Source: Planctomycetota bacterium
GTDB lineage: Bacteria > Planctomycetota > MHYJ01 > JACQXL01 > JACQZI01
Length of the DNA: 64,000 nucleotides
Reading direction: 5' to 3'
Assembly (NCBI GenBank): GCA_016207825.1
Contig: JACQZI010000017.1
Span: 15,478 to 79,477, forward strand
In this document: piece after piece, positions 19,515-60,564 of the stretch
Layout of the letters: each line of letters starts with the position of its first letter
Position numbering within the stretch: position 1 is the stretch's first letter
Translations under genes and position numbers: made by a program
The notes under the pieces: model-generated
Told to the model about the DNA's origin: nothing
Seen by the model: only the letters and a program-made list of their open reading frames with translations
The model's database searches: none

Positions 19515-21368
19515 TTATTCCTTATCCGGGTTCATTCCCTCCTCTGCTTTTTTTACTTCTTCAAGCTCGCTGGCTAACGCCTTCTGGCTTTCTTCGGCAT
19601 TGCGAATAATACGGGGGGTTAAGAAAATAAGCAAATATGATTTGCGGATGGAATCATTCGTATACTTAAAGAGGAAATCACCCAATACAGGAATATCACC
19701 AAGCAAGGGGATTTTAGTTATGGTTTTACCCAAACGCTCCGTAGACAACCCACCGATTACTGCAGTTTGATTATCCTGCACAATTAAATGTGTCACCAAA
19801 GTTGACTCCTGTATCCTCGGTAAATCAATTGAGTTAGCAGTTCCGGCCGTAGTAACGGTGAAAGTGTCAAATCCCTGAGGAGTAGTCGCTTTAGCTCCGG
19901 TAAGAACCGTATTTTTGGGTATTATGGTCAGCATTATTTTCCCTGTCCCTCTAATTATATTGGGAACCACCAAAAGCTGGAACCCTTGCTCAGCAGGAGA
20001 TTTACTTGCTTCTTTAATAGTCACCTGTGAAGTAGCGCCACCTGCCGTTGCCTCAGTAACGGTAACTTCCGGATAATGAATTTTTTCGCCAACCCAAATC
20101 GTCGATTCTTTTCCATCAAGCGTCATAATAAAAGGACGTTGCTCCAACTTTGAAAAAGCATCTTTTGAAAATATCCTCAAAGTGGATGTTAAATCAAAAG
20201 TGCTCAAAAAGCCCATGGCAAATTCACCGGCCTTATAAGTACCAGTTGACCCAGCTTCTAGCTCACCACCAACCCCAAATGGAGCTCGCGTAAGGCGTGT
20301 TTTATCAACCGCTGAACCGGAGCTTGTTGATTTAGGAACGGATGTGATTTTCCATCCGTCTGTTTCACCGGTGGTTGTATAATCTATACCGAATTTAAGC
20401 AAATCCTCGTTTGAAGTATTGACAAAGTTAACCATAAACATTATTTGTAACGGTTCAATATCCAGCTGTTTTACCATTTTTTCCATTTCATCCAAAGCAG
20501 GTTTGGTATCCTTGGCGATAATACTATTAGTTTTTCCGTCATATTTAAGCATGCCATTCGGGGAAAGCATATTTTGAAGTATTTCGAGTACGGTAAATTC
20601 CTTAGCCGGGTCGGGTTTTTGCGCGCTGCCTAATGCGTATGTAACGCTTATAGTTGCACGGTAATCTGTAGGAGGCCGCAAATATTGCAACTGGAAGATG
20701 CGGGTTTCCAGTTGTGAAGTCAAGGCTTCCTGACGGATTATCCTGTAAACATTATGCGCCTCTTTAACCACCACGAAACCGGACGTTTTACAGACATATT
20801 CCAACGCTTCCATCCACGGCACTTTAGAAAATTTGAATTTAGGCACGGTTACGCCTTCAACATCCCTCGCTATAATAATACTTACTCCGGCCATATCGGC
20901 AATACGGTTAATAATTTTATCCATTTGTCTTTTTTCCGGAGCATCACTGGTGATTTCCATGTCAACCCAAACGGCTCTCTTAATCTGAAAATAATTCAAT
21001 TTGACTTCTTCGACAATGCAATCGCTCAAACGAACCGCCTCATTTAAAACATCGCGCCAAGGCAATTTGTTAACAGCCAATTGCTGGTTTATAACCACAG
21101 AATTATCCACTGTGATATCAGCAATTATAGTTACGCCTATTTTTTCAGATATGAATGTAAGTATATCCCTTAAAGGAGTATCTTTATTCCATTCGTTGGT
21201 AATGACCATCTCCTGTATGGAAACATCTTGTTTAACCTCATCGGCTTTCGGCGGTTGTGGCGTTACGACCGGTTCATCCGATACACCTATTCCGCAAAAG
21301 GACATGACCAATCCGAACGAAAGTAAAACTATAAGATATCGCTTTGCCATTTTGAGCCTCCTTTTCAT
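19515..21368 (-). CDS. pilQ: type IV pilus / type II secretion secretin (PilQ/GspD family)
   Basis: C-terminal secretin signature IPLLGDIPVLGDFLF...LLIFLTPRII. Signal peptide. Located downstream of pilMNO. Confidence 0.8.
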   Translation of the reverse strand: MKRRLKMAKRYLIVLLSFGLVMSFCGIGVSDEPVVTPQPPKADEVKQDVSIQEMVITNEWNKDTPLRDILTFISEKIGVTIIADITVDNSVVINQQLAVNKLPWRDVLNEAVRLSDCIVEEVKLNYFQIKRAVWVDMEITSDAPEKRQMDKIINRIADMAGVSIIIARDVEGVTVPKFKFSKVPWMEALEYVCKTSGFVVVKEAHNVYRIIRQEALTSQLETRIFQLQYLRPPTDYRATISVTYALGSAQKPDPAKEFTVLEILQNMLSPNGMLKYDGKTNSIIAKDTKPALDEMEKMVKQLDIEPLQIMFMVNFVNTSNEDLLKFGIDYTTTGETDGWKITSVPKSTSSGSAVDKTRLTRAPFGVGGELEAGSTGTYKAGEFAMGFLSTFDLTSTLRIFSKDAFSKLEQRPFIMTLDGKESTIWVGEKIHYPEVTVTEATAGGATSQVTIKEASKSPAEQGFQLLVVPNIIRGTGKIMLTIIPKNTVLTGAKATTPQGFDTFTVTTAGTANSIDLPRIQESTLVTHLIVQDNQTAVIGGLSTERLGKTITKIPLLGDIPVLGDFLFKYTNDSIRKSYLLIFLTPRIIRNAEESQKALASELEEVKKAEEGMNPDKE

Positions 21369-21388
21369 ATAAGTTAAAGTTAATTACC

Positions 21389-23101
21389 TTATTTTAAGAC
21401 CAATTCTTCCCCTTTATAAGAAAATATGACTTTTTTATCCTTAGTAATCTTCTTTACGATAAGGCCTTCCTCAACCTTTTCATTTTCACCGTAATAATTC
21501 CCGTTAATTAAAACAGAGGCGACCGGCGTTTCCTGCGTAAAAGCAAACACGTCGTTAAACCGTAGCCCGAAAATACTTATTTTAAATGGTGATTTTAAAG
21601 CAACGATATCTCGCTTCTCATAAAACAAGACGCCATCAATCTTTATTCCCTTTACCGTATAAAACTCGTTGATTATCTTTGCCCGATTATTAAAACCTTC
21701 AACTTCTATAGCCAATTCCATTATTTTTTGCTCATATTCCGTGCCCTTGATTTCTTCCCGTGCACAATATTCTTTGAGGGTCTTTAATTTCTCTTCGAGT
21801 TTTCCGAAGAGGTTTTTTTCTATTGCAGCATTAAGGTCTTTTTTAATATCCGCCAAAATAGCGGCTGCGTTATCGCGCAAGTCTTTGGCGCGCTCGTAAA
21901 GCAATTGCTTAATCGGGAAAATCTCTTCAAGCCTTTTTACGACCTCATCCATTTGTTGTTTAAAATCTGTTTTATCTGTCTTATTAAGAGCCTCGTAAAT
22001 GGCGCGGATTTCCAAATACTTATCGGAGAGTTCTTTTTCTTTGGTTTCCGGCTTCATTGTTTCATCCGCTATCATTTTTTCCATTTTACTTAATGAGTCC
22101 TTAGCACTATCGACTTTTTTTAACCATTCTAAATCATCTCCCGGATTTCCGTCTGACCCTGCGGGGCCTTCTCCTTTATTATCCCCTAAAAAATCCAAGT
22201 AAGGAGCTTTCTTAGCACCTTTAGGCGTATGGCGCGGGATAAACGGATCTATCCGTCCGTTTACGTCAAAAACCGTCCTCTTCTTTGAGCGCGCTTCTTC
22301 TTTCGAAACCATTGTCATAACCATATAATCATTCGTGAATTTCACGATATAGCCTTCCCTGTCTATTATTATTTTAAAGGTGTTCGGTTTAATTGCGGCG
22401 TCCGTATATTGGCATTCCACAAGATGACCTTCGGTCTCCTTCCCCATGACAATCTCGGTAATCTTACCGACTAATTTAACCTTTAATTCAGCCAGAGGAG
22501 AAGCGATACGCCCTTCGAAAATTATAGAGACCCCTTCGGTCAAATTTCTTGTCGGGTCAGGTGGCTGTTTAATAAGCCTACCGATGCATTCAAAATCATA
22601 AATCCCCCCTGCGGGAATCGGTTTTTCTGTTACATAAGTCTTATTGCTTGTCAGCAAATATTTAAAAACAATTTTATCTTCCTCGGCGTTTATAACAAGG
22701 TCTTTTTCCATATCCCTGCCAACCTGTCTGGTGGCCTCTATAAAAGAAAGATTATCCTGCCTGATATATATGGTTTTAATCTTGCGCTGTATTGGTAGAT
22801 TAATCCCTGTTCTGGTCGGCGCCACTTCAGCCACTATTTTCCATGCAGGAGCTTCTTTAACAGTTACACTGGTCCATGTGGTATGGCCAAACCCAATCTG
22901 CAACCCCTTAGAATCTGTTATCATATACCAAATCTCTTTTGTAACCGGCTCCTGTTCCGGCTTAGCAGTTTCCTCTTTTCCTGATTGCCCCCAAACATTA
23001 ACATTTTGAACAAACAATATTCCCGTAATCATGACGATTAAAACAATCATCATTAAGGAACGATGCATAAAAACATATATTAAATCAATTTTAGTTCTCA
23101 T
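21389..23101 (-). CDS. hypothetical periplasmic protein in pilMNO-secretin operon (possible PilP-like)
   Basis: N-terminal TM segment. No family recognised; placed by position. Confidence 0.35.
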   Translation of the reverse strand: MRTKIDLIYVFMHRSLMMIVLIVMITGILFVQNVNVWGQSGKEETAKPEQEPVTKEIWYMITDSKGLQIGFGHTTWTSVTVKEAPAWKIVAEVAPTRTGINLPIQRKIKTIYIRQDNLSFIEATRQVGRDMEKDLVINAEEDKIVFKYLLTSNKTYVTEKPIPAGGIYDFECIGRLIKQPPDPTRNLTEGVSIIFEGRIASPLAELKVKLVGKITEIVMGKETEGHLVECQYTDAAIKPNTFKIIIDREGYIVKFTNDYMVMTMVSKEEARSKKRTVFDVNGRIDPFIPRHTPKGAKKAPYLDFLGDNKGEGPAGSDGNPGDDLEWLKKVDSAKDSLSKMEKMIADETMKPETKEKELSDKYLEIRAIYEALNKTDKTDFKQQMDEVVKRLEEIFPIKQLLYERAKDLRDNAAAILADIKKDLNAAIEKNLFGKLEEKLKTLKEYCAREEIKGTEYEQKIMELAIEVEGFNNRAKIINEFYTVKGIKIDGVLFYEKRDIVALKSPFKISIFGLRFNDVFAFTQETPVASVLINGNYYGENEKVEEGLIVKKITKDKKVIFSYKGEELVLK

Positions 23102-23102
23102 A

Positions 23103-23690
23103 CTATTTAGCTGAATTTACGTAAGTGGTTATTTTAATAGTCAGCTCATGAATAATTTCGCCTGTTTTCAAAGCATCCCCCATTTTTATCGGCCTGAAAG
23201 AAAAACTGCTTACTTTAATAAAACGAGGATATTCTTCCAGTAGAGAAATAAATTTAATCAAATCAAATAATTTACCTTCAAGCTGTAAATCATAAGAAAT
23301 CTGCTCGAAATCCGCGGTTACCGGAGCAGCTGATCCACGCCCGCCGCTGCTTTGAGTAATAGATGCTGTTTTTAAAACAACATTCACGCTATCGCTTAAC
23401 CCGGTCAATGTCTCGACAAACACTTCGTAAGCAACCTCGTTTTTAGTCGGCAGTTGTTTTTGAAGCTCCTTGTTTTCTTCTTCAAGCTTTACTATGTCGT
23501 TTTCCAGTTCTTGTTTTTTCGGAAGTTGTTCTGACGCCGTCTTTAGCTTTGTTTCTATGCCTGCCAGTTCGGTACGCGCCTGGCTGAGATTCTTCCGAAA
23601 AACGAATATCCCCAATACCGCCAGGGTAACAGCAACAACCCCGGCCACGCCGAGCGTAACAAACAACAACTGTTTTTCTGACAATCTCAT
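23103..23690 (-). CDS. pilO: type IV pilus assembly protein PilO-like
   Basis: A bitopic protein with a coiled coil, positioned after pilN. Confidence 0.6.
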   Translation of the reverse strand: MRLSEKQLLFVTLGVAGVVAVTLAVLGIFVFRKNLSQARTELAGIETKLKTASEQLPKKQELENDIVKLEEENKELQKQLPTKNEVAYEVFVETLTGLSDSVNVVLKTASITQSSGGRGSAAPVTADFEQISYDLQLEGKLFDLIKFISLLEEYPRFIKVSSFSFRPIKMGDALKTGEIIHELTIKITTYVNSAK

Positions 23691-23691
23691 C

Positions 23692-24336
23692 TTACTTGGT
23701 TCCTGTAACGGGTAAACGATACAGCTCTATCTGGAAATCAGCTATCCAGTCTTCTTTCGCATCCGTTGCGTTAAGTTTAAACGTCAACTCTTCATTTATA
23801 CCGCCATTAAAAATATCTATTAATTCCGGGGTGTTTTTCAGCCTGCGGCGGAAATCTGTCATAATTATGATAGGATTTTTACTTTCGTCCGGGGCCACTG
23901 CCTGGCAATTCATTTTTATCATGGCTTCAATAGCTTTTTTTGTCCTGGTTCCACCGATTGCTTTATCGGCGCATTCAAAACTCGTCACCCAAACAGTCTG
24001 ATTTTCGTGCAACACATCAAAAAGCGTATCAATTGCATGCCACCATTTGAAAACGCGTGATTTTGTAATCTTTTCCGCAGCTTCTTTCCACTTCTTTAAG
24101 TCATTTTTTTTCTGCTCTAAAGCTGGAATCTGATTTAAAATTGCTTCTACTTTAGCCAATTCTACGTTCTTCTCTGTAATATCCTGTTTTACTTTCTTGG
24201 TATCCATCATGGTTTTGACATCCCAACCTAAAACGCCTAGACATACTACCACGGCTATAATAATACCAACGAACCGTGGTAATGGTGTTCGTTCTTTACG
24301 CCTTCGTTCAAACGGAATCAGGTTTATTTTTAACAT
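23692..24336 (-). CDS. pilN: type IV pilus assembly protein PilN-like
   Basis: Carries the KINLIPFERR N-terminal motif and a TM segment. Confidence 0.65.
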   Translation of the reverse strand: MLKINLIPFERRRKERTPLPRFVGIIIAVVVCLGVLGWDVKTMMDTKKVKQDITEKNVELAKVEAILNQIPALEQKKNDLKKWKEAAEKITKSRVFKWWHAIDTLFDVLHENQTVWVTSFECADKAIGGTRTKKAIEAMIKMNCQAVAPDESKNPIIIMTDFRRRLKNTPELIDIFNGGINEELTFKLNATDAKEDWIADFQIELYRLPVTGTK

Positions 24337-24340
24337 ATGC

Positions 24341-25405
24341 TTATTTCGGTTTTACGCGGGAAGCCAACCCTATTGCTATAGCCAAACGGGAAGCATGCCG
24401 CCCGATATCTTCTTTCGTAAGCTTTTCTTCATCAACCGCCAAATACTCCAATGGATTCCACCAAATCGGACGTTTCTCCAGGTTCTTTTCAAAAGCATCT
24501 TCCAACCCAACCAAACGGCCGCTTCCTCCGGAAAGATAAACCATGTCTATTGGTTTTTCAAACTGGTGCTCAAAGTAATCAAAAGATAAATGCACTTCGT
24601 GAATCAAATCATCCACCAAAGAAGCTGTTGCATCTTTAATATCTTCTATTTTATCAGCCGGGTTGCATTTAAGTTCGTCGGCCTGAGCAGACTGCAATCC
24701 GGTTCTTTTGCTTATTGCCTCCGTGAAATCATTCCCGGCAATGGTTATCTCACGTGTAAAACAGGAAACAGGACCTGACATAATATTCAACGACGACTTA
24801 ATGGTCCCGATATCAATCAAAGCTATTGTCTTATTATCCTCGACCTTACCTTGATTAGCCGCCAGCATCTGGTGAAGCTCGTAAGCGTTGCCAAGAGCAA
24901 AAGTATCTATATCAATAATATACGGCCATAGCCCAGCTCCTTCCAAAATAGCCAGGTGGTCTTCAATCAAAGTCCGTTTGGAAGCCACCAAAACCACCTT
25001 CATCTCTTTGTTTGCAGAATCCGCCGGCGGCGCTTCTGCGCTTGCCGGAGCAGGCAAATCCATGCGCTGGCAATCGAGCACAACTTCATTTGCTTCAAAA
25101 GGAATATACTTGCTGGCTTCATATTTTATGGCATTAGGCAATTCTTCATCAGACATTTCCGGCATTGTGATATAACGAACGATAACCGGCCTTCCGGAAA
25201 CTGCCGTTACCACTTTCTTTGAACTAAACCCCGCTTTTTGGAACAGGCTTTTCAGGAATTCCTTCAAATCGGCTCCGGCCGGTATATCTTCAACGGCATA
25301 ACCGGTAATGGTATAAACGCCTTCTCCGCTGACAAGCTCAACGGCCTTAACGCATTTACTCCCGATATCCAAGCCGATTAACGATTTTCCTTTTATTTTC
25401 GCCAT
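24341..25405 (-). CDS. pilM: type IV pilus assembly protein PilM (actin-like ATPase)
   Basis: LIGLDIGSKCVKAVEL actin-like fold motifs. Confidence 0.8.
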   Translation of the reverse strand: MAKIKGKSLIGLDIGSKCVKAVELVSGEGVYTITGYAVEDIPAGADLKEFLKSLFQKAGFSSKKVVTAVSGRPVIVRYITMPEMSDEELPNAIKYEASKYIPFEANEVVLDCQRMDLPAPASAEAPPADSANKEMKVVLVASKRTLIEDHLAILEGAGLWPYIIDIDTFALGNAYELHQMLAANQGKVEDNKTIALIDIGTIKSSLNIMSGPVSCFTREITIAGNDFTEAISKRTGLQSAQADELKCNPADKIEDIKDATASLVDDLIHEVHLSFDYFEHQFEKPIDMVYLSGGSGRLVGLEDAFEKNLEKRPIWWNPLEYLAVDEEKLTKEDIGRHASRLAIAIGLASRVKPK

Positions 25406-28124: not shown

Positions 28125-29993
28125 ATGAGGAAATTATTATTAACCCTGCTGGGAACGGGATTGTCAATTATCTATTTGGGTTGCGGGTCAACGGCAAGCG
28201 AAGTAAAAAAACCGGTAACGGCAAAAGAACCGCCGCCGGCAACCAAGCAAGCCCAACCGTCGGAGCTCGTTAAAGAAAAACTCTCCTTGATAGAAGAACT
28301 CGGCTCTGACGACTGGGAAACCAGGGAAAAAGCACAGAAAGAACTGGAAAAAATGGGGGAAAAAGCGGAAGGCCAGCTTAAAGAAGCGGCCAAAAGCGCA
28401 AACCCAGAAATAAGGAGCCGGGCCACCCGTATCCTGAAACTTATTGAAACTCAAAAGCGGTGCAAACTTTCCGATGGCTTCTTAAGAGAATTCCCAAATA
28501 TTTATTATAATATCCTGGGGCTTTCCCCGGCGGGCAAATATGAACTCTTGGAAGAAGTTGTTTCCAAAGATAAAAACGGGCAGTTGAAATTCATCGGGAA
28601 AATCTCGCCCGCCGATATCGCCGTATTGACTGGCGAAATCTTGCGCGAGGACGGCAAAGGGCTAACCGATGACCAGAAAATAAAACTTATCCACACAAAC
28701 TTATCAAGCGGTTTCGGGCAGATAAACCAATCCGGCATACATTTGATAAAACTCCTGAAGGATCAGAACACGGAAATAAAACGCCTGGCCATCGAAACAG
28801 CAGGCTACATGGGTGTAAAAGAAGCAATTCCGGAAATCCGGGCTTTCCTAAAAGATCCTGCCGGGATACTGCGCGGCTATGCCGCCAAGACGCTCGGAAC
28901 GCTGGGCGATAAAGAAAGCATGAAAGACATCGCCGCGCTCTTAAACGACTCAGAAGCACTCCCTTACGAAGTAATCAACGCGCTGGTCATGCTCGGCGCT
29001 AAAGAATATGTAAATGAAATAAGACCTTTATTAAAAAGTGGTGATTCCTCTGCGCGGGTGGCCGCTGCCGTGGCCATGGGAAATTTTGGAGACAAGGAAT
29101 CGATTCCTCAGCTTATGGAACTGCTTGGTGATTCGTCGGATTCCAGCGTGCCTGCTATGGCGGCCGAGGCACTCGGCAGGCTCGGCCACAAGGAAGCCAT
29201 CCCGAAAATAATACCTCTCCTGGGCGCGGAGACATCTGATTGCCGAGAATATTCACTTAGGGCGCTGACCACCCTCAGAGCGTCCGATGCCGTCCCGGAA
29301 ATAATGAAAAGACTGAGTGATGAAGACCCCTATATCACCCAGCTTTCCATCCAATCCCTTAAAATTCTCGGTTCTAAAGAGCTTATCCCGAAAATGATTC
29401 AAGAGCTACAAAGCAACAGCGAGCCTTCCCATCAGGAACCCTACCTAAAAATCGACCTCTTAAACACGTCCGCCCACATGATGGCAAAGGAACTCTTTCC
29501 GGAAATAGCCAGTCTCTTGAAAGATTCAGACAAAACAACCGTCGCCGTAGCGGCTTTTTCGCTTATCAACGCAAATATCGGGATGACCGGCGAGGAAGTC
29601 CCGGAAATAACGGAACTTCTGAAAAAAGAAAATGTCTCCAGCGCCCAGCTTAACGAAATCTCCGAGCCGGTTTATGGATTCTTCCCGGAATACACCGCGG
29701 AAAAAACAGCCGGGTTACTATCGGATAAAAGAAAGGCTGTCCGGGCATCGGCCCTCTTAACATTGGGCAACTTAGTCCTAAAAGAATCCACGCCGGAAAT
29801 AATAAAAATGCTCGGTGACAAAGAACCACCCGTCCGCGCCACGGCAATTTCCGCCTTATGCAACCTCGAAGCGGTTAACGCCTCGGACTATATCAAAAAG
29901 CTTTATTCGGATAGCGACCCGGCAATCCGAGCCATGGCAGAACTCGCCATCCAATACTTAAAAACAATCGAGGAACCGCCGCCACAGGAATAA
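28125..29993 (+). CDS. HEAT-repeat (PBS lyase-like) lipoprotein
   Basis: Lipobox (LGCGS) and many ~30-aa repeats with AA.ALG..GDKEAIP.L..LL.D. Confidence 0.7.
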   Translation: MRKLLLTLLGTGLSIIYLGCGSTASEVKKPVTAKEPPPATKQAQPSELVKEKLSLIEELGSDDWETREKAQKELEKMGEKAEGQLKEAAKSANPEIRSRATRILKLIETQKRCKLSDGFLREFPNIYYNILGLSPAGKYELLEEVVSKDKNGQLKFIGKISPADIAVLTGEILREDGKGLTDDQKIKLIHTNLSSGFGQINQSGIHLIKLLKDQNTEIKRLAIETAGYMGVKEAIPEIRAFLKDPAGILRGYAAKTLGTLGDKESMKDIAALLNDSEALPYEVINALVMLGAKEYVNEIRPLLKSGDSSARVAAAVAMGNFGDKESIPQLMELLGDSSDSSVPAMAAEALGRLGHKEAIPKIIPLLGAETSDCREYSLRALTTLRASDAVPEIMKRLSDEDPYITQLSIQSLKILGSKELIPKMIQELQSNSEPSHQEPYLKIDLLNTSAHMMAKELFPEIASLLKDSDKTTVAVAAFSLINANIGMTGEEVPEITELLKKENVSSAQLNEISEPVYGFFPEYTAEKTAGLLSDKRKAVRASALLTLGNLVLKESTPEIIKMLGDKEPPVRATAISALCNLEAVNASDYIKKLYSDSDPAIRAMAELAIQYLKTIEEPPPQE

Positions 29994-30097: not shown

Positions 30098-31159
30098 ATG
30101 GCGTCATTTGAAGACCTGCTGGTCCAATTGGTAAAAAGAGGCGGTTCTGATTTGCATATCACGAAAGATTCTCCACCGCGCATCAGGGTGGACGGCAAGT
30201 TGGCTCCGCTTGAAGGCGACAAACTGACTGCCGCAGACTCCCAAAAATTAATCTACGGTCTTCTGGACCCATCCCAGGTTGCCCGTTTTGAAAAGAATAA
30301 AGAGCTCGATTTCTCTTTCGGTATCGAAGGCTTAGGCAGGTTCAGGACGAACGTTTTCATGCAGCGCGGCGCGGTCGGCGCAGTCCTGCGTATCATCCCG
30401 ACCAAAATAAAAACATTCGAGGATTTGGGGCTTTCCCGGCAGGTCTGCGAATCGCTGTGCAACCTGCCCAAAGGCTTGATTCTGGTCACCGGCGCGACCG
30501 GCAGCGGCAAATCCACCACCCTCGCCGCGATGATTGATTTCATCAACACCACGGATTACGGGCATATAATCACCGTGGAAGACCCGATAGAATTCGTCCA
30601 CTCGAACAAAAACTGCCTGGTCAACCAGCGCGAAGTCGGCTCGGATACCAACGAATTCAAAAACGCCTTGAGAACGGTCTTAAGGCAGGACCCGGACGTG
30701 GTGCTAATCGGAGAAATGCGCGATACGGAAACGACCGAAGCAGCATTGACCATTTCCGAAACCGGCCACCTGACATTCGGGACACTGCATACCAGCGATT
30801 GCGTCCAGACCATGAACCGTATCATAGATATCTTCCCGGCTTACCAACAATCGCAGATACGGACTCAATTATCCTTTACATTATCAGCCGTATTCTGCCA
30901 GCAGTTGTTACCGCGTGCAACCGGCAAAGGGCGCGTGCTGGCGGCGGAAATCATGCTTGCCAACTCTGCCATCCGCTCGCTCATCCGGGATAATAAGGTA
31001 CACCAAATTTACTCGGTCATCCAGACCGCCGGGAAGTCCGGAATGAAGACGATGAACCAGTCGTTATACGAACTCTATAAATCAGGCACGATAAAATATG
31101 ATACGGCATTGGAATACTCAAGCGACCCGGACGATCTGAAACGCCTGATGCAGAAATAA
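30098..31159 (+). CDS. pilT: twitching motility ATPase PilT
   Basis: Walker A GATGSGKST and the PilT-specific length and motifs. Confidence 0.85.
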   Translation: MASFEDLLVQLVKRGGSDLHITKDSPPRIRVDGKLAPLEGDKLTAADSQKLIYGLLDPSQVARFEKNKELDFSFGIEGLGRFRTNVFMQRGAVGAVLRIIPTKIKTFEDLGLSRQVCESLCNLPKGLILVTGATGSGKSTTLAAMIDFINTTDYGHIITVEDPIEFVHSNKNCLVNQREVGSDTNEFKNALRTVLRQDPDVVLIGEMRDTETTEAALTISETGHLTFGTLHTSDCVQTMNRIIDIFPAYQQSQIRTQLSFTLSAVFCQQLLPRATGKGRVLAAEIMLANSAIRSLIRDNKVHQIYSVIQTAGKSGMKTMNQSLYELYKSGTIKYDTALEYSSDPDDLKRLMQK

Positions 31160-31870: not shown

Positions 31871-31961
31871 AATAATATTATACCAAACCGGACACTATTT
31901 AGCAATATTTTACTCTATTTAGCAATATTGTACATTAACCCCTACCCTACCTACCCACCCT

Positions 31962-32262
31962 CTGTACGGTAGGGAAGGGCGTTCTGTACGGTGGGGAGAG
32001 GTACTCCGTACGGTATGGAAGCATACTCTGTACGGTCAGGAGCGGTATTCCGTACGGTATGGAGACACGCTCTATACGGTCAGGAGTGGTATTCCGTACG
32101 GTATGGAGGCACACTCTGTACGGTCGGGAGTGGTATTCCGTACGGTATGGAGGCATACTCTGTACGGTCGGTATGAGTATTCTGTACGGTCAGGAGAATG
32201 CACCTGATGGGTATGGAGAAGTATTCGCTTGGGTATCCGGGCACCTTCGCTATGGAATACTG
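31962..32262. repeat. 22-bp (44-bp higher-order) tandem repeat array, about 13 units
   Basis: Alternating ccgtacggtatggaggcatact and ctgtacggtcaggagtggtatt units that decay at the distal end. The gene-proximal boundary is cctacccaccct. Confidence 0.9.
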
Positions 32263-32284: not shown

Positions 32285-32460
32285 GTTTTTTTAACCTGAA
32301 CCGACCCTAGTATAGATTAATCCCACCTCTTGTATAGATTACTACCCGTCCTAGTATAGATTACAGCACCCTCTTATAAGGATTATATCCCCCTCTCGTA
32401 TAGATTATATCTACTACCCGCATAGATTGTACTATCCTATTACAGAATATACTCCACCTC
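32285..32460. repeat. degenerate ~23-bp tandem repeat with GTATAGATTA core (about 7 units)
   Basis: tagtatagatta / cgtatagatta / catagattgta units, immediately distal to array 2. Confidence 0.6.
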
Positions 32461-32486: not shown

Positions 32487-33289
32487 TCATACTTTAGAAG
32501 AAGTTCTTTCCATGCTCCGTTCTGTACACCCTTGTAATGGACACGTCGGACAGTAAAACCAGGATTTATAAACCTCACCTAACCGCCCGGTGAGTTTAGC
32601 CTCACGCATTATTTTAATGGCGTTTTTTAGTTTCTGGATAGCCTTATTTTGCACCTTAACTTTAAAGGTTTTGCCCGGATATTGGACCAATCCATATTTA
32701 GGCAATTTATTATAGGTGGCTTCCACTAAAAGCGCCTAGGCAATTAATTGCATCCGAACCGAACTATAAAGTTTTTTAGGCGGTGCGGCGGATTTAATTT
32801 CAACCGGTATGTAATTTTCGTCTTGTTTGATAACATAATCAGGATAGCCTCTGATAAAGTAACGAGGAGCCGAAAGCATTTTAGCATCTTTTACACTAAT
32901 TCCTTTATAAACGATTTCCCCTGCGGGCATATTTGTTTCATTTTGCAAGGCTTTTGCTGAATGCCTTAAAACATACCATATGATAAAAAATAAAAGCGCA
33001 ATAAATAAGAACCAATAAATCATCTTGTTTATTTAAGCATTAAGAGGATGATAAAAGCTAATAAAGACGAGAGTCCTATAATTAAGAATGCAACCGACCA
33101 CCGGCTATAGCTCTGTTCTTTTTTAACGTTATCCTGCTGATGGGCATGGAAGACTTCGCCTTTATGTAATAATTCAAGGTCTGCGGAAATGACACCGGTT
33201 CTCCTGAGCCACCAGGCATGAGGGCAATAAAAGAATTCATTGATTTCTGATGCGCTAACCCATATTTCTTCGCGTTTATCCGGTTCCAT
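32487..33289 (-). pseudogene. Cas4-like (DUF83) PD-(D/E)xK nuclease, disrupted (one frameshift in a hydrophobic segment and one in-frame TAG)
   Basis: Three collinear fragments. 33289-33029 carries WVSASEINEFFYCPHAWWL (Cas4 N-terminal Cys motif). 33023-32736 carries GYPDYV...PVEIKS (motifs I and II) and ends ...MQLIA-TAG, where the QhxxY Tyr is expected. 32726-32487 is in the same frame and has the C-terminal CPTCPLQGC cluster. Confidence 0.5.
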
Positions 33290-33331: not shown

Positions 33332-33687
33332 TTATAACCTCATTAATGTTTTGATATGTTTTTGCAATAGAACGAAATGATCTGATTCAAGCATGCCTAT
33401 TTTAGTTGTCAACTGCCTTCTATCGATTGCCATTATTTGAAACGGCAATAATACCGACTTCATTTTAAGGCCATTTACAGGTGAGGGCTCAACAGGGAAA
33501 GCAAATGGAAAACGAAGAGCCCCACTTGTTTAGTAAAAGGAATAATTACAATAGTCGGGAGAGTGGAATAATCATCTTCATCCTGAACTATAACAACCGG
33601 CCTGGGTCCGCTTTGCACATGCGTGTGTTGGTCTTTTGGAGAGGGTAAATTCGCGTAGACAATATCACCATTTTTAAATATCGCCAT
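33332..33687 (-). pseudogene. mazF: MazF/PemK-family endoribonuclease toxin gene with internal frameshift
   Basis: The N-terminal 70 aa (GDIVYANLP...GPRPVVIVQ...IIPFTKQ) match PemK/MazF. The C-terminal third (FPVEPS...VLLPFQIMAIDRRQL...) continues in another frame down to TAA at 33332. Confidence 0.55.
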
Positions 33688-33697
33688 TTGTTATTTC

Positions 33698-33970
33698 TCA
33701 TCTGGCTTCTTCATAAAGGCCTAATCCTTCTATTCCAGCCTGTTCTAACCCATGAAATTCTCTTTCGATTTCTTCGTTAATAAAAGGAGGATTTTCACTT
33801 ATATTATCCGAGCCTGAATAAACGTAGTTGCTAAGGGGGATTCCAATAAGGTTCTTATCTTTCGTCACTTCAACCACATAAAAGACAATAGAAGGCTGTC
33901 CCCACTGGTCAGACCTTTCTCTCAATGCCGAACTGTTAATTTCTTTGGTTATCATATTAATTTCCTCCAT
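33698..33970 (-). CDS. hypothetical 90-aa protein immediately upstream of mazF (possible non-canonical antitoxin)
   Basis: 10-nt gap to mazF and a 14-nt overlap with the upstream 238-aa gene. No family recognised. Confidence 0.35.
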   Translation of the reverse strand: MEEINMITKEINSSALRERSDQWGQPSIVFYVVEVTKDKNLIGIPLSNYVYSGSDNISENPPFINEEIEREFHGLEQAGIEGLGLYEEAR

Positions 33971-38554: not shown

Positions 38555-39013
38555 ATGGTTAATATTTCAAAGATAACCAAGAAGCGCCTGGGCGAGCTTT
38601 TGGTCTCCGAAGGCTTAGTCACCAACGACCAGGTTACCGAGGCGTTAACCGAGCAGAAAAAAGTCGGCTCGCTCCTGGGCGAGACGTTGATTAAGCTGGG
38701 TTACGTAACCGAATCCGATATCGCCGCGGCAATAGCGGCGCAATTCGGGCTGCCTTATATTGATACCTCCCGTTACACCATAGAAAAAGAGATTTTCGAA
38801 CTGATTCCGGTGGATTTCATGAAGAAAAACGAGCTGATTCCGCTGGACAGAATCGGCAATATCATTACCATTGCCGTATGCGGCCCTTTGAGCGAGAAAG
38901 TCTTTGAGGAACTGGAAAAGCTTATGGGATGCGAAGCATATCTTTTTGTTTCAACTTCGTCACAAGTTCATAAAATAATAGAAGATTTTACATCAGGCGA
39001 GAAAAAGAAATAG
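38555..39013 (+). CDS. standalone type II secretion system protein E N-terminal domain (GspE-N/PilB-N) protein
   Basis: LGELLVSEGLVTNDQVTEALTEQ...LGYVTESDIA... is typical of the T2SSE_N domain. Confidence 0.65.
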   Translation: MVNISKITKKRLGELLVSEGLVTNDQVTEALTEQKKVGSLLGETLIKLGYVTESDIAAAIAAQFGLPYIDTSRYTIEKEIFELIPVDFMKKNELIPLDRIGNIITIAVCGPLSEKVFEELEKLMGCEAYLFVSTSSQVHKIIEDFTSGEKKK

Positions 39014-39034
39014 CCCCGACACCCTTGTCGGGAC

Positions 39035-40762
39035 TTGCAAGAGACTAATTATATGGCGAGTAATTTCAGCGGCTGGTTAAAGATGTTTCTAGTTAAGAAG
39101 AACCTGCTTACCGAGGAGCAAAAAAAAACGGCTGACGATATAACATCCAAGGATAAAAGATTATTAAGCGAAGTCCTGATAACCAATAAGTTTATTGAAG
39201 AAGAAACCTTATTAGCCTTGATTGCCAGGGAAGCGCGCATCCCACCCATAAACGTGGAAAAAGTCTTGCCGGATGAAGCGGCCCTTAAGATGATTCTGGA
39301 AAGCCAGGCGCATTCTTACGGGGTTCTTCCCGTTTCCAAAATAGGCGATATCCTTACCATTGCGGTAAGTAATCCTTTCGACATACTTAAAATAGACGAC
39401 CTGAAAATAATCACCGGATGCGATATCAGGTATGTAGTGGCACTGGATTTCCGGATAGCAGAGCGAATCCGCCCGTTTTATAACCCGGAAGAACTGGCCA
39501 TGGAAAAGATGCTGGAGGAAAACGAAGAGACCGACGAGGTGGAGCTTACCAAGCACCAGATGGAAGACGTGGACGTGGCATCGTTGACTGCGGCGGGAGA
39601 AGACGCACCGATTGTGAAATTCGTCAACCTGATTATTTATAAAGCACTCGAGGAAGGGGCAAGCGATATTCATATCGAGCCCTATGAAAACATGGTGGCG
39701 GTCCGTTATCGCAAAGACGGCGTGCTTCATGAAGCAATGCAGCCGCCCAAGAAGATTTTCAACGCCATCATTTCACGCGTAAAAGTAATGACTTCGCTCG
39801 ATATCGCCGAACGCAGGGTTCCCCAGGACGGCAAATTCCAGATAAAGTATGAGAACCGTCAGATAGATTTCCGCGTTTCCACCCTGCCGACCATTTACGG
39901 GGAAAAGGTCGTTATGCGCGTCCTGGATTCTTCCAGCATTAATTTAGGACTGGATGTTTTAGGGTTTGAACCGCAGGCAATGAATGCATTTAAAACGGCA
40001 ATTATGGCTCCTTATGGAATGATTCTGGTAACAGGCCCGACCGGAAGCGGAAAATCAACCACTTTGTATTCAGCGTTAAAAGCAATCATGTCGAATGAAG
40101 ATAATATCATGACCGTGGAAGACCCGGTGGAATACCAGCTGGAAGGCGTCGGGCAGGTACCGATAAACCAAAAAAGGGGAATGACCTTTGCTTTGGCATT
40201 AAGGTCTCTTTTACGCCAGGACCCGGATAAGATAATGGTCGGAGAAATCCGCGACGGAGAAACGGCCGATATCGCGGTAAAAGCGGCGATGACCGGGCAC
40301 CTGGTTTTAAGCACGCTCCATACGAACGATGCGGCTTCGGCTATCACACGCCTGGCTGATATGGGAGTTGACCCATTCCTGATTGCCTCATCAACTATCC
40401 TTCTTTCAGCGCAAAGGCTTGCCAGAAAACTATGCGAAAGATGCAAACAGCCCTTTGACCCCCTTCCGCCTCCGGAAAGATTAATCAATATCGGTTTTAA
40501 AGAAGCGGAGTGTAAAAACATTATTTATAAACCGGTCGGCTGCGCACATTGCCGTGACGGCTACAAAGGACGTTTTGCCTTCCTGGAAGCGCTTGAAATT
40601 GATGATGAAGTACGCAGGATGATTATTAAAAGCAAGTCTGTTTTTGAGATAAAGAAATATGCCGTAGATAAAGGAATGATTACCCTGCGCCGTTGCGGGG
40701 TGCTTAATATCCTAAAAGGAAAGACCTCTATTGAAGAAGTGCTGAGAATGACCGAGGCATAA
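39035..40762 (+). CDS. pilB: type IV pilus assembly ATPase PilB / GspE family
   Basis: Walker A GPTGSGKSTT, and a C-terminal CxxC...CxxC zinc motif (CERCKQ...CAHCRDG). Confidence 0.85.
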   Translation: MQETNYMASNFSGWLKMFLVKKNLLTEEQKKTADDITSKDKRLLSEVLITNKFIEEETLLALIAREARIPPINVEKVLPDEAALKMILESQAHSYGVLPVSKIGDILTIAVSNPFDILKIDDLKIITGCDIRYVVALDFRIAERIRPFYNPEELAMEKMLEENEETDEVELTKHQMEDVDVASLTAAGEDAPIVKFVNLIIYKALEEGASDIHIEPYENMVAVRYRKDGVLHEAMQPPKKIFNAIISRVKVMTSLDIAERRVPQDGKFQIKYENRQIDFRVSTLPTIYGEKVVMRVLDSSSINLGLDVLGFEPQAMNAFKTAIMAPYGMILVTGPTGSGKSTTLYSALKAIMSNEDNIMTVEDPVEYQLEGVGQVPINQKRGMTFALALRSLLRQDPDKIMVGEIRDGETADIAVKAAMTGHLVLSTLHTNDAASAITRLADMGVDPFLIASSTILLSAQRLARKLCERCKQPFDPLPPPERLINIGFKEAECKNIIYKPVGCAHCRDGYKGRFAFLEALEIDDEVRRMIIKSKSVFEIKKYAVDKGMITLRRCGVLNILKGKTSIEEVLRMTEA

Positions 40763-59928: not shown

Positions 59929-60147
59929 ATATGATTTTATCGGGTTATCCCATAAGGAGCGTTAGGGATACTTGGCATAGAAAAATATCCCGCCTTGCGA
60001 CCAGAGGCTATAGTCCACGAAGTGGGAAGTCCCCGTAGGTGGCGGGGACGGCTAAAACGCATATATTCGTTTGCATCTCAATTAAATGAGGTTTCAAAGG
60101 CAGGGGGGTGGTGCTACTCCCCCCTCAACTTAGGGCTAACTACTCAT

Positions 60148-60409
60148 AAATACGGTGAGACCCCATCTCAAATGCGGAGGGACTCCATGGCAAATGCGGA
60201 GGGACTCCATCTTAAATGCGGTGATGCCCCATCTCAGATGCGGTGAGACCCCATCTCAAATGCAGAGAGACTCCATCTTAAATGCGGAGAGACCCCATCC
60301 CAAATGCGGAGGGACTCCATTCCAAATCCAGAGAGACCCCATCTTAAATGCGGAGAGGCTCCATGGCAAATGCGGTGGGACTCCATCTTAGATGCGGAGG
60401 GACTCCATG
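60148..60409. repeat. 22-bp tandem repeat array (about 12 units, consensus aaatgcggagggactccatctt)
   Basis: Head-to-tail units with no spacers. The sequence family differs from arrays 1 and 2 but the period is identical. Confidence 0.9.
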
Positions 60410-60564
60410 ATAGTAACGGTGGTATAGCCCTATCCAAAAATGAATTCCAGAAAACGAGACTTGCTTGCAGTGAGGAACGAATCCAACCGAATATAGGCGA
60501 TACACCACGGGAAAATCAAGCATTAGAAGATGTGGGAGGCGGTACGCTTTCGGATACCATTATA

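Follow-up and report, generated by a model that had tools for sequence, protein, structure and literature searches.

The locus considered here lies on the minus strand of a 64,000-nucleotide (nt) stretch of DNA from a Planctomycetota bacterium (GenBank assembly GCA_016207825.1, contig JACQZI010000017.1, positions 15,478 to 79,477; hereafter, the window), and comprises two adjacent genes of the Cas4 nuclease family, a small one followed by a large one which is interrupted by a premature TAG (Table 1). A first-pass annotation, made from the letters alone, had described three collinear fragments with an in-frame TAG; these coding pieces are real and their coordinates are confirmed, the second and the third sharing one frame and being separated by the TAG, the first lying in the other frame.

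Table 1. Coordinates of the Cas4-like gene pair, of its parts and of surrounding features (nucleotide positions in the window; aa, amino acids; TM, transmembrane)
Feature	Position	Strand	Remarks
Coding piece 1	33289..33029	minus	86 aa; starts MEPDKREEIWVSASEINEFFYCPHAWWL, ends LLAFIILLMLK, then TAA
Coding piece 2	33023..32736	minus	95 aa; starts MIYWFLFIALLFFIIWYVL, includes GYPDYV, PVEIKS and MQLIA, then TAG
Coding piece 3	32735..32487	minus	starts ALLVEATYNKL, includes FYCPTCPLQGCTERS, then TGA
Small-subunit gene	33029..33289	minus	86 aa + TAA; Cas4 N-terminal helix, motif I, C-terminal TM helix
Small subunit, C22	33226..33224	minus	codon of the first Fe-S cysteine
Small subunit, motif I G44-x3-H48	33148..33146	minus	GEVFH; position of the H48 codon
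Small subunit, C-terminal TM helix	33032..33106	minus	residues 62-86, SRWSVAFLIIGLSSLLAFIILLMLK; from hydropathy
Spacer ACAAG	33024..33028	minus	5 nt, from small-gene TAA to large-gene ATG
Large-subunit gene	32487..33023	minus	178 codons + TGA, broken at codon 96; TM helix, core, three cysteines
Large subunit, N-terminal TM helix	32955..33023	minus	residues 1-23, MIYWFLFIALLFFIIWYVLRHSA; from hydropathy
Large subunit, motif II D62	32840..32838	minus	GYPDY
Large subunit, motif III E75-x-K77	32801..32793	minus	VEIKS
Large subunit, motif IV Q92	32750..32748	minus
Premature TAG	32736..32738	minus	large-subunit codon 96, fifth position of QhxxY/Q
Post-stop part of large gene	32487..32735	minus	codons 97-178 + TGA; intact, carries the three C-terminal cysteines
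GTG	32726..32724	minus	large-subunit codon 100, 9 nt past the TAG
Large subunit, C158/C161/C166	32552..32526	minus	CPTCPLQGC
mazF/pemK toxin gene	33332-33687	minus	directly upstream of the pair; frameshifted
Open reading frame (ORF) upstream of mazF/pemK	33698-33970	minus	90 aa; no Pfam match
22-nt tandem arrays	31939-32224, 32306-32415, 60126-60455		exact period, units differ
pilM/O/Q	19515-25405		PilM, PilO, PilQ secretin; two cluster ORFs without Pfam match
pilT	30098-31159
MshEN-domain protein and PilB-like ATPase region	38555-40762
pilB-like ATPase	39035-40762

By sequence and by fold, the locus belongs to the Cas4 family. The joined translation of the two genes scores 43.2 bits against PF01930 (curated cut-off 22.7) and 76.3 bits against TIGR00372 (curated cut-off 65), in agreement with the earlier assignment to a DUF83/Cas4-type PD-(D/E)xK nuclease, whose sequence motifs FFYCPHAWWL, GYPDYV and PVEIKS are all present. 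Taken singly, the small protein reaches 23.3 bits with TIGR00372 and the large subunits of three relatives reach 55-59, all below 65, so that only the joined sequence clears the cut-off; indeed, the small protein covers no more than positions 3-52 of the PADLOC Cas4 model and positions 2-49 of TIGR00372, the large one covering positions ~29/52-175 of the Cas4 model. The small subunit matches no Pfam family, and the split membrane pair has no dedicated NCBIfam model. While a single-sequence search of the Protein Data Bank yielded almost nothing, a profile built from eight joined pairs and seven fused relatives, the latter carrying both parts on one polypeptide, matches 8D3L (E 3.5e-13), 7MI4, 4R5Q and 4IC1 in two stretches, an N-terminal one corresponding to Cas4 residues 3-58 and a C-terminal one corresponding to residues 104-203. 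The RecB-like nuclease fold was judged on an AlphaFold2 model of the fused relative P0110, not on the pair of the window (predicted local distance difference test, pLDDT, 93.9; predicted template-modelling score, pTM, 0.87); in this model two very long helices (residues 30-83 and 88-125) form a hairpin projecting from the alpha/beta core, and the best Foldseek matches are Cas4 (8D3L, 4IC1, 7MI4/5), ACE1, AdnA and Dna2.

The residues expected of a Cas4 enzyme are distributed over the two polypeptides. Cysteine C22 of the small protein and cysteines C158, C161 and C166 of the large one are invariant in all 15 sequences of the profile (eight pairs, seven fused forms); such a 1+3 pattern holds the [4Fe-4S] cluster in Cas4, as described for SSO0001 (PMC13621843). 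The C-terminal cysteine cluster had been given as C-x2-C-x5-C in the first-pass annotation: the cluster is there, its actual spacing being C-x2-C-x4-C, and in the window these three residues lie past the stop. Of the catalytic motifs, H48 is found in the small protein and D62 and E75-I-K77 in the large one, all aligning with 4R5Q (GVVDLVIKRGGEYIPVEIK) and 8D3L; motif IV is incomplete in the window, where Q92 is present and the fifth position is occupied by the TAG. Since cysteines and catalytic residues are divided in this way, neither chain would suffice on its own for the cluster site or for a complete active site.

The change of frame between the first and the second piece had been interpreted as a frameshift, i.e. 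a second lesion besides the TAG. It is instead a gene boundary, formed at 33023-33031 by the TAA of the small gene, the 5-nt spacer and the ATG of the large one, because the same boundary is kept in all the relatives examined. A search with the joined protein retrieves only large-type proteins, of 171-177 aa, which open with the hydrophobic helix and begin at the exact methionine of piece 2; on the contigs of these relatives a gene of 85-92 aa is found directly upstream of each large gene, its product showing the pattern ...ISASE[IV].EFFYCP[HY]AWW...G..[FY]H... and then a hydrophobic helix at the C-terminus. The pair occurs in 12 distinct loci with a GC content of 34-63%, as well as on plasmids of Singulisphaera acidiphila and Bacillus subtilis, adjacent pairs having been seen in the window, in L001, L002-L006, L007, L008, L012, L013-L016 and L018, and on the P0005 contig. 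The metagenome loci L012-L016 show the small-then-large arrangement of the window, and so does L011, the one metagenome-assembled genome matched in a search of GTDB species genomes; in the distant L018 the two proteins measure 82 and 175 aa, and across the relatives examined the small gene ranges from 81 to 92 aa and the large one from 162 to 178 aa. With its 86 aa, 178 codons and 5-nt spacer the window therefore has the layout seen in L012, its closest relative, and in at least 10 other loci.

The junction between the genes takes several forms among nine loci spanning the same GC range: a 4-nt overlap (GTGATG), a 1-nt overlap (TAATG) and spacers of 1, 5 or 8 nt; in none of the nine are the two genes joined in frame, and the TAA-ACAAG-ATG junction of the window recurs in L012. 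A programmed frameshift joining both ORFs was considered and rejected, as junction sequence, spacing and frame offset vary among the relatives; inspection of the junctions by eye, without a formal scan, brought no common slippery motif to notice. Two pairs come from sequenced plasmids of cultured bacteria. On pSINAC03 of S. acidiphila DSM 18658, WP_015250768 (88 aa, annotated as 'hypothetical protein') and WP_015250769 (169 aa, 'PD-(D/E)XK nuclease family protein') overlap by 4 nt and adjoin an N-6 DNA methylase; on a plasmid of B. subtilis DSM 5611, WEZ26692 (81 aa, also a 'hypothetical protein') accompanies WEZ26691 (162 aa, 'Dna2/Cas4 domain-containing protein').

These observations bear directly on the possibility that one ancestral Cas4-like gene has decayed through two lesions, the nonsense TAG and a frameshift in the hydrophobic stretch. 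Judged from the window alone, three collinear fragments in two frames would fit such a history, and the adjoining mazF/pemK gene is truly frameshifted, so that decay does occur in the region. Yet the relatives have two proper genes at this place, with proper stops and starts, down to ~30% identity, over the whole GC range and in cultured Planctomycetota as well as on Bacillota plasmids; the homologous large proteins start where piece 2 starts; and the small gene is under purifying selection, the ratio of nonsynonymous to synonymous substitution rates (dN/dS) being 0.12 against L001 and 0.17 against L012. A double-lesion origin is, on these grounds, extremely improbable, and the split of the coding sequence into two genes is retained in what follows.

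The unusual hydrophobic stretch seen at first pass is real, and consists of two segments, one at residues 62-86 of the small protein and the other at residues 1-23 of the large one, with 19-residue Kyte-Doolittle maxima of 2.85 and of 2.52 (residues 1-19), respectively. The small protein stops two residues past its helix and the large one opens with its own; where each helix faces its soluble domain it is bordered by basic residues, with R/K right after the helix of the large subunit. In the fused relatives of 268-281 aa the N-terminal helix, a two-TM hairpin and the core follow each other in this order, the small-subunit helix aligning with the first of the two hairpin helices. The split form is thus the fused form cut within the hairpin loop, which would leave both soluble parts on one side of the membrane; this side is predicted to be the cytoplasmic one, given the hydropathy, the flanking charges and the usual cytoplasmic site of Fe-S proteins. 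That the locus was 'possibly a membrane-associated variant', mentioned in the first-pass annotation as an alternative, turns out to be the key point.

Membrane segments are, moreover, the rule in the wider family. An exhaustive profile search returned 934 cluster representatives with E <= 1e-3, 341 of them with E <= 1e-10; among the best 150 representatives, 106 are of the split type, with the TM helix first and without the N-terminal cysteine helix, 24 are fused proteins of 268-596 aa (cysteine helix, then two, four or more hydrophobic segments, then the core), 12 are other proteins with TM segments, and the remaining 8, mostly fragments and including the 79-aa piece of the window itself (P0018), have no TM segment. 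TM segments are therefore found in 142 of these 150. Some members of the family deserve separate mention. P0014 and P0016 (fused, 279-280 aa), the closest fused forms to the subfamily of the window, have lost the motif-I histidine and carry H or G in place of the aspartate of motif II and R or H in place of the lysine of motif III; they retain the four cysteines, and may be inactive, DNA-binding or structural derivatives. In P0053, P0073, P0089, P0144, P0152 and P0153 (541-596 aa), at least 10 hydrophobic segments separate the cysteine helix from the nuclease core, i.e. a full polytopic membrane domain is inserted into the Cas4 fold. P0017 (85 aa, from another sample) opens at the 'MQVV..ALLVE' motif, and may be either a contig-end fragment or another copy cut near the same place as that of the window.

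The TAG at codon 96 of the large gene is the other discontinuity of the locus. In the subfamily this codon specifies Gln (CAG in L012, L007 and L014; CAA in L002 and L008) or His (CAT in L001), in more distant members Y, A or E is found, and the solved Cas4s 8D3L and 7MI4 have Gln at the 'Tyr' position. The first-pass annotation was right in placing the TAG at the fifth position of QhxxY and in proposing a single-base nonsense mutation; the Tyr codon (TAY) which it supposed to be the ancestor does not agree with the nearest relatives, which have Gln or His. L012, 89% identical to the protein of the window, reads ATT GCT CAG GCG CTT where the window reads ATT GCC TAG GCG CTT; the simplest origin would be a single C-to-T transition turning the CAG of Gln96 into TAG, a Tyr codon being a less likely source because the closest relative has CAG. 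None of the at least 12 orthologues has a TAG at this codon.

An error of assembly had been named from the beginning as a possible source of the TAG; such an error, or one of sequencing, or a minority allele beside a real, intact gene, derives some plausibility from the single base by which the codon differs from the CAG of the nearest relative, the TAG being documented at the level of assemblies. The same base is nevertheless present in three separately assembled runs, which with the window makes four assemblies in all: over 6268 nt of the Logan assembly of SRR12113402 and 2052 nt of that of SRR12113405 the identity with the window is 100%, and the 41-kb Logan contig of SRR12113406 differs from it over 8564 nt by one single-nucleotide polymorphism, at 29573, so that it is not simply the same contig; closely related, non-identical populations therefore share the TAG allele. 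An artefact or minority allele is thus highly unlikely, and the TAG is treated here as a genuine mutation. The polymorphism at 29573 falls in a HEAT-repeat gene.

The TAG is, moreover, an ordinary stop in this genome: it terminates 9 of the 50 long ORFs in the window, and no tRNA gene is found in the 64 kb, observations which also led to the rejection of a genome-wide recoding of TAG and of pyrrolysine. Past the stop, dN/dS amounts to 0.15 in the comparison with L001 and to 0.09 in that with L012. When L001 serves as outgroup, the lineage of the window has accumulated here no nonsynonymous and six synonymous changes, and no further stop, frameshift or indel is present. As the post-stop part gives no sign of relaxed selection, the TAG is very recent, much younger than the split from L012, and the description of the gene as 'decayed' has to be abandoned. 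In the part preceding the stop, the changes in the lineage of the window relative to L012 and L001 are six nonsynonymous and one synonymous, several of them visibly in the TM helix of the large subunit (MIYWFLFIALLFF against MVYLLLFSALLFF and MIYLPLIGVILF; positions assigned by eye).

The same clean downstream sequence can be read in another way, namely that the TAG is not lethal to the gene, being overcome either by low-level read-through or by a restart at the GTG of codon 100, in which second case a three-piece enzyme would still assemble. Members of the family tolerate Q, H, A, E or Y at the position of codon 96, and the near-cognate insertion of Gln, Tyr or another residue would restore an acceptable one; the GTG is close behind the stop, in a family which already works in separate pieces. 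Against this stand the use of TAG as a regular terminator and the lack of a tRNA gene, hence of a suppressor, in the window; the break, moreover, interrupts the conserved motif-IV helix at its centre (MQLIA|QALLVEA), and a very recent mutation accounts more simply for the clean downstream sequence. Tolerance of the TAG is accordingly judged unlikely, though less so than an artefact, and a recent nonsense mutation is preferred. The locus thus has one lesion, the TAG, and not two; being real and absent from the orthologues, this mutation makes the copy of the window a probable pseudogene: the large subunit ends ahead of the final core elements and of its three cysteines, so that the enzyme is most probably inactive.

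As to its genomic surroundings, the locus is not a CRISPR adaptation Cas4, since the context that defines one, cas1/cas2 and an array, was looked for and is absent: no CRISPR array is found in the 64 kb, a Pfam scan of 19 ORFs flanking the pair (at 19.5-31.9 kb and 33.3-43.4 kb only; pilus genes, argS, mazF, HTH and glycosidase-like genes are among them) brought up no cas domain, and none of the relative loci looked at shows a cas gene. On this point the first-pass annotation was correct. A CRISPR array hidden in the downstream repeats was also considered and discarded, these being tandem arrays with a 22-nt period and without spacers. Two of them (Table 1) closely follow the Cas4 pair and precede an HTH_17 gene; in L012, likewise, the pair is closely followed by a 22-nt array (1794-2037; 11 copies, 93% matches). 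No Rfam family is matched over the whole window.

The pair lies in a short variable segment (31.3-38.4 kb) with type IV pilus genes on both sides, a link which is probably coincidental as it is unseen in the relatives. The mazF/pemK gene directly upstream survives as an N-terminal fragment of 70 aa (PemK profile positions 1-47) and a C-terminal fragment of 43 aa in another frame (positions 71-108), and the 90-aa ORF upstream of it may encode an antitoxin; two potentially harmful nuclease genes, mazF/pemK and the Cas4 pair, thus stand side by side, both inactivated. Among the relatives the surroundings are unrelated: there are pairs adjoining rnpA-yidC, following genes of heme biosynthesis, bordering on an MmeI-type restriction-modification gene, or in the vicinity of BrnT, MNT-HEPN, DUF4145 and HARE-HTH genes, and plasmid-borne pairs have a methylase as neighbour or helicase and toprim genes nearby. 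Such surroundings recall variable or defence-type regions, but they include no partner that would define a system: no third gene is conserved among the loci of the relatives, and the pair itself is the sole conserved unit. The protein of the window has no match in IMG/VR, GenBank phages or PLSDB plasmids, for which reason a phage or plasmid origin of its subfamily was set aside; plasmid matches were obtained only for the more distant P0019 type.

Compared with the Cas4 of CRISPR systems (PF01930/TIGR00372; 8D3L of type I-C, the 7MI4 Cas4-Cas1 fusion, 4IC1 or SSO0001, and 4R5Q or Pcal_0546), the pair shares the GxxxH, D, ExK and Q-h-x-x-Q/Y motifs and the one N-terminal and three C-terminal cysteines; it differs in the two TM helices inserted after model position ~50, where the gene is divided, in a cysteine spacing of x2/x4 instead of x2/x5, and in having neither an array in the 64 kb nor a cas domain in the scanned flanks. 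With the solo-Cas4 and Cas4 genes of mobile genetic elements (PMC5704561) it has in common its position outside CRISPR-cas loci, often in variable regions or on plasmids; the solo-Cas4s described there are, however, single soluble polypeptides, and the text of that phylogenomic study (Hudaiberdiev et al. 2017; PMC5704561) contains neither 'transmembrane' nor 'split', 'membrane' occurring only in the name of an unrelated gene. The fused membrane Cas4-like proteins (P0110, P0119 and P0025, of 268-281 aa; four-TM forms of ~325 aa; forms of 540-596 aa) have the same order of cysteine helix, TM region and core, but as one polypeptide with a hairpin or a larger membrane domain, whereas the type present in the window is cut between the helices. 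EndA of Streptococcus pneumoniae and NucA of B. subtilis are membrane-anchored nucleases of DNA uptake, with unrelated folds, which act outside the membrane; the tether to the cytoplasmic membrane is shared, and the copy of the window lies among type IV pilus genes, but the Fe-S nuclease domain of the pair is predicted to be cytoplasmic and the pilus link is not kept in the relatives. No published Cas4 with TM segments or in split form was found in the open-access literature, where absence is no proof; the two-part membrane architecture, although widespread, is apparently undescribed.

Taken together, the evidence makes it probable, with good confidence, that the locus is an operon of two genes encoding a Cas4-family nuclease which is naturally split and anchored in the membrane, and that this copy of it carries a recent nonsense mutation. 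In the mechanism proposed, the small gene would provide an 86-aa tail-anchored protein, whose soluble part contributes the Cas4 N-terminal helix, the first Fe-S cysteine and the motif-I histidine, and the large gene a 178-aa protein with a TM helix followed by the PD-(D/E)xK core and the three C-terminal cysteines; the close spacing or overlap of stop and start codons would keep both chains co-translated. Within the membrane the two helices would pair as do those of the TM hairpin in the fused relatives, bringing the soluble parts together at the cytoplasmic face, where one [4Fe-4S] cluster and one active site would be built from residues of both chains; the product would be an Fe-S-containing DNA nuclease working at the membrane. 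As to its role, the best guess is that the enzyme, independently of CRISPR, cuts or resects DNA on the inner side of the membrane, for example incoming phage, plasmid or transforming DNA.

Several points weigh against this picture. The topology is derived solely from hydropathy, flanking charges and the customary cytoplasmic location of Fe-S proteins, and the association of the two chains in the membrane is likewise a prediction from their sequences. The three further assemblies with the TAG are probably samples of a single population, and the lack of nonsynonymous changes past the TAG would also fit continued expression of that part. Finally, no partner gene is kept across loci whose neighbours include toxin-antitoxin, restriction-modification, plasmid replication and housekeeping genes, which makes a role in defence a guess.

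The copy of the window is, in itself, an ordinary and very recent nonsense mutant; the interest of the locus lies in the family to which it belongs. Such gene pairs are prone to be misread as frameshifted pseudogenes, and constitute an annotation trap in that the small subunit is a 'hypothetical protein' in two plasmid records and the large one, in three relatives, stays below the NCBI Cas4 cut-off. The division of catalytic and Fe-S ligand residues over two small membrane proteins would be an uncommon case of active-site reconstitution through the pairing of TM helices, and cultured carriers exist (the B. subtilis DSM 5611 plasmid and S. acidiphila pSINAC03). It may tentatively be suggested, as a possibility still short of probable, that bacteria of several phyla carry a widespread class of Cas4-family nucleases, so far unrecognised, which are embedded in the cytoplasmic membrane and are mostly obligate two-chain enzymes (a tail-anchored protein of 85 aa and a head-anchored one of 175 aa, with a shared cluster and active site), acting without CRISPR on DNA at the membrane. 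For Cas4 genes outside CRISPR loci, a large membrane-tethered subgroup suggests a concrete place of action; if the proposal is true, DNA might, for example, be destroyed or processed while it enters the cell.

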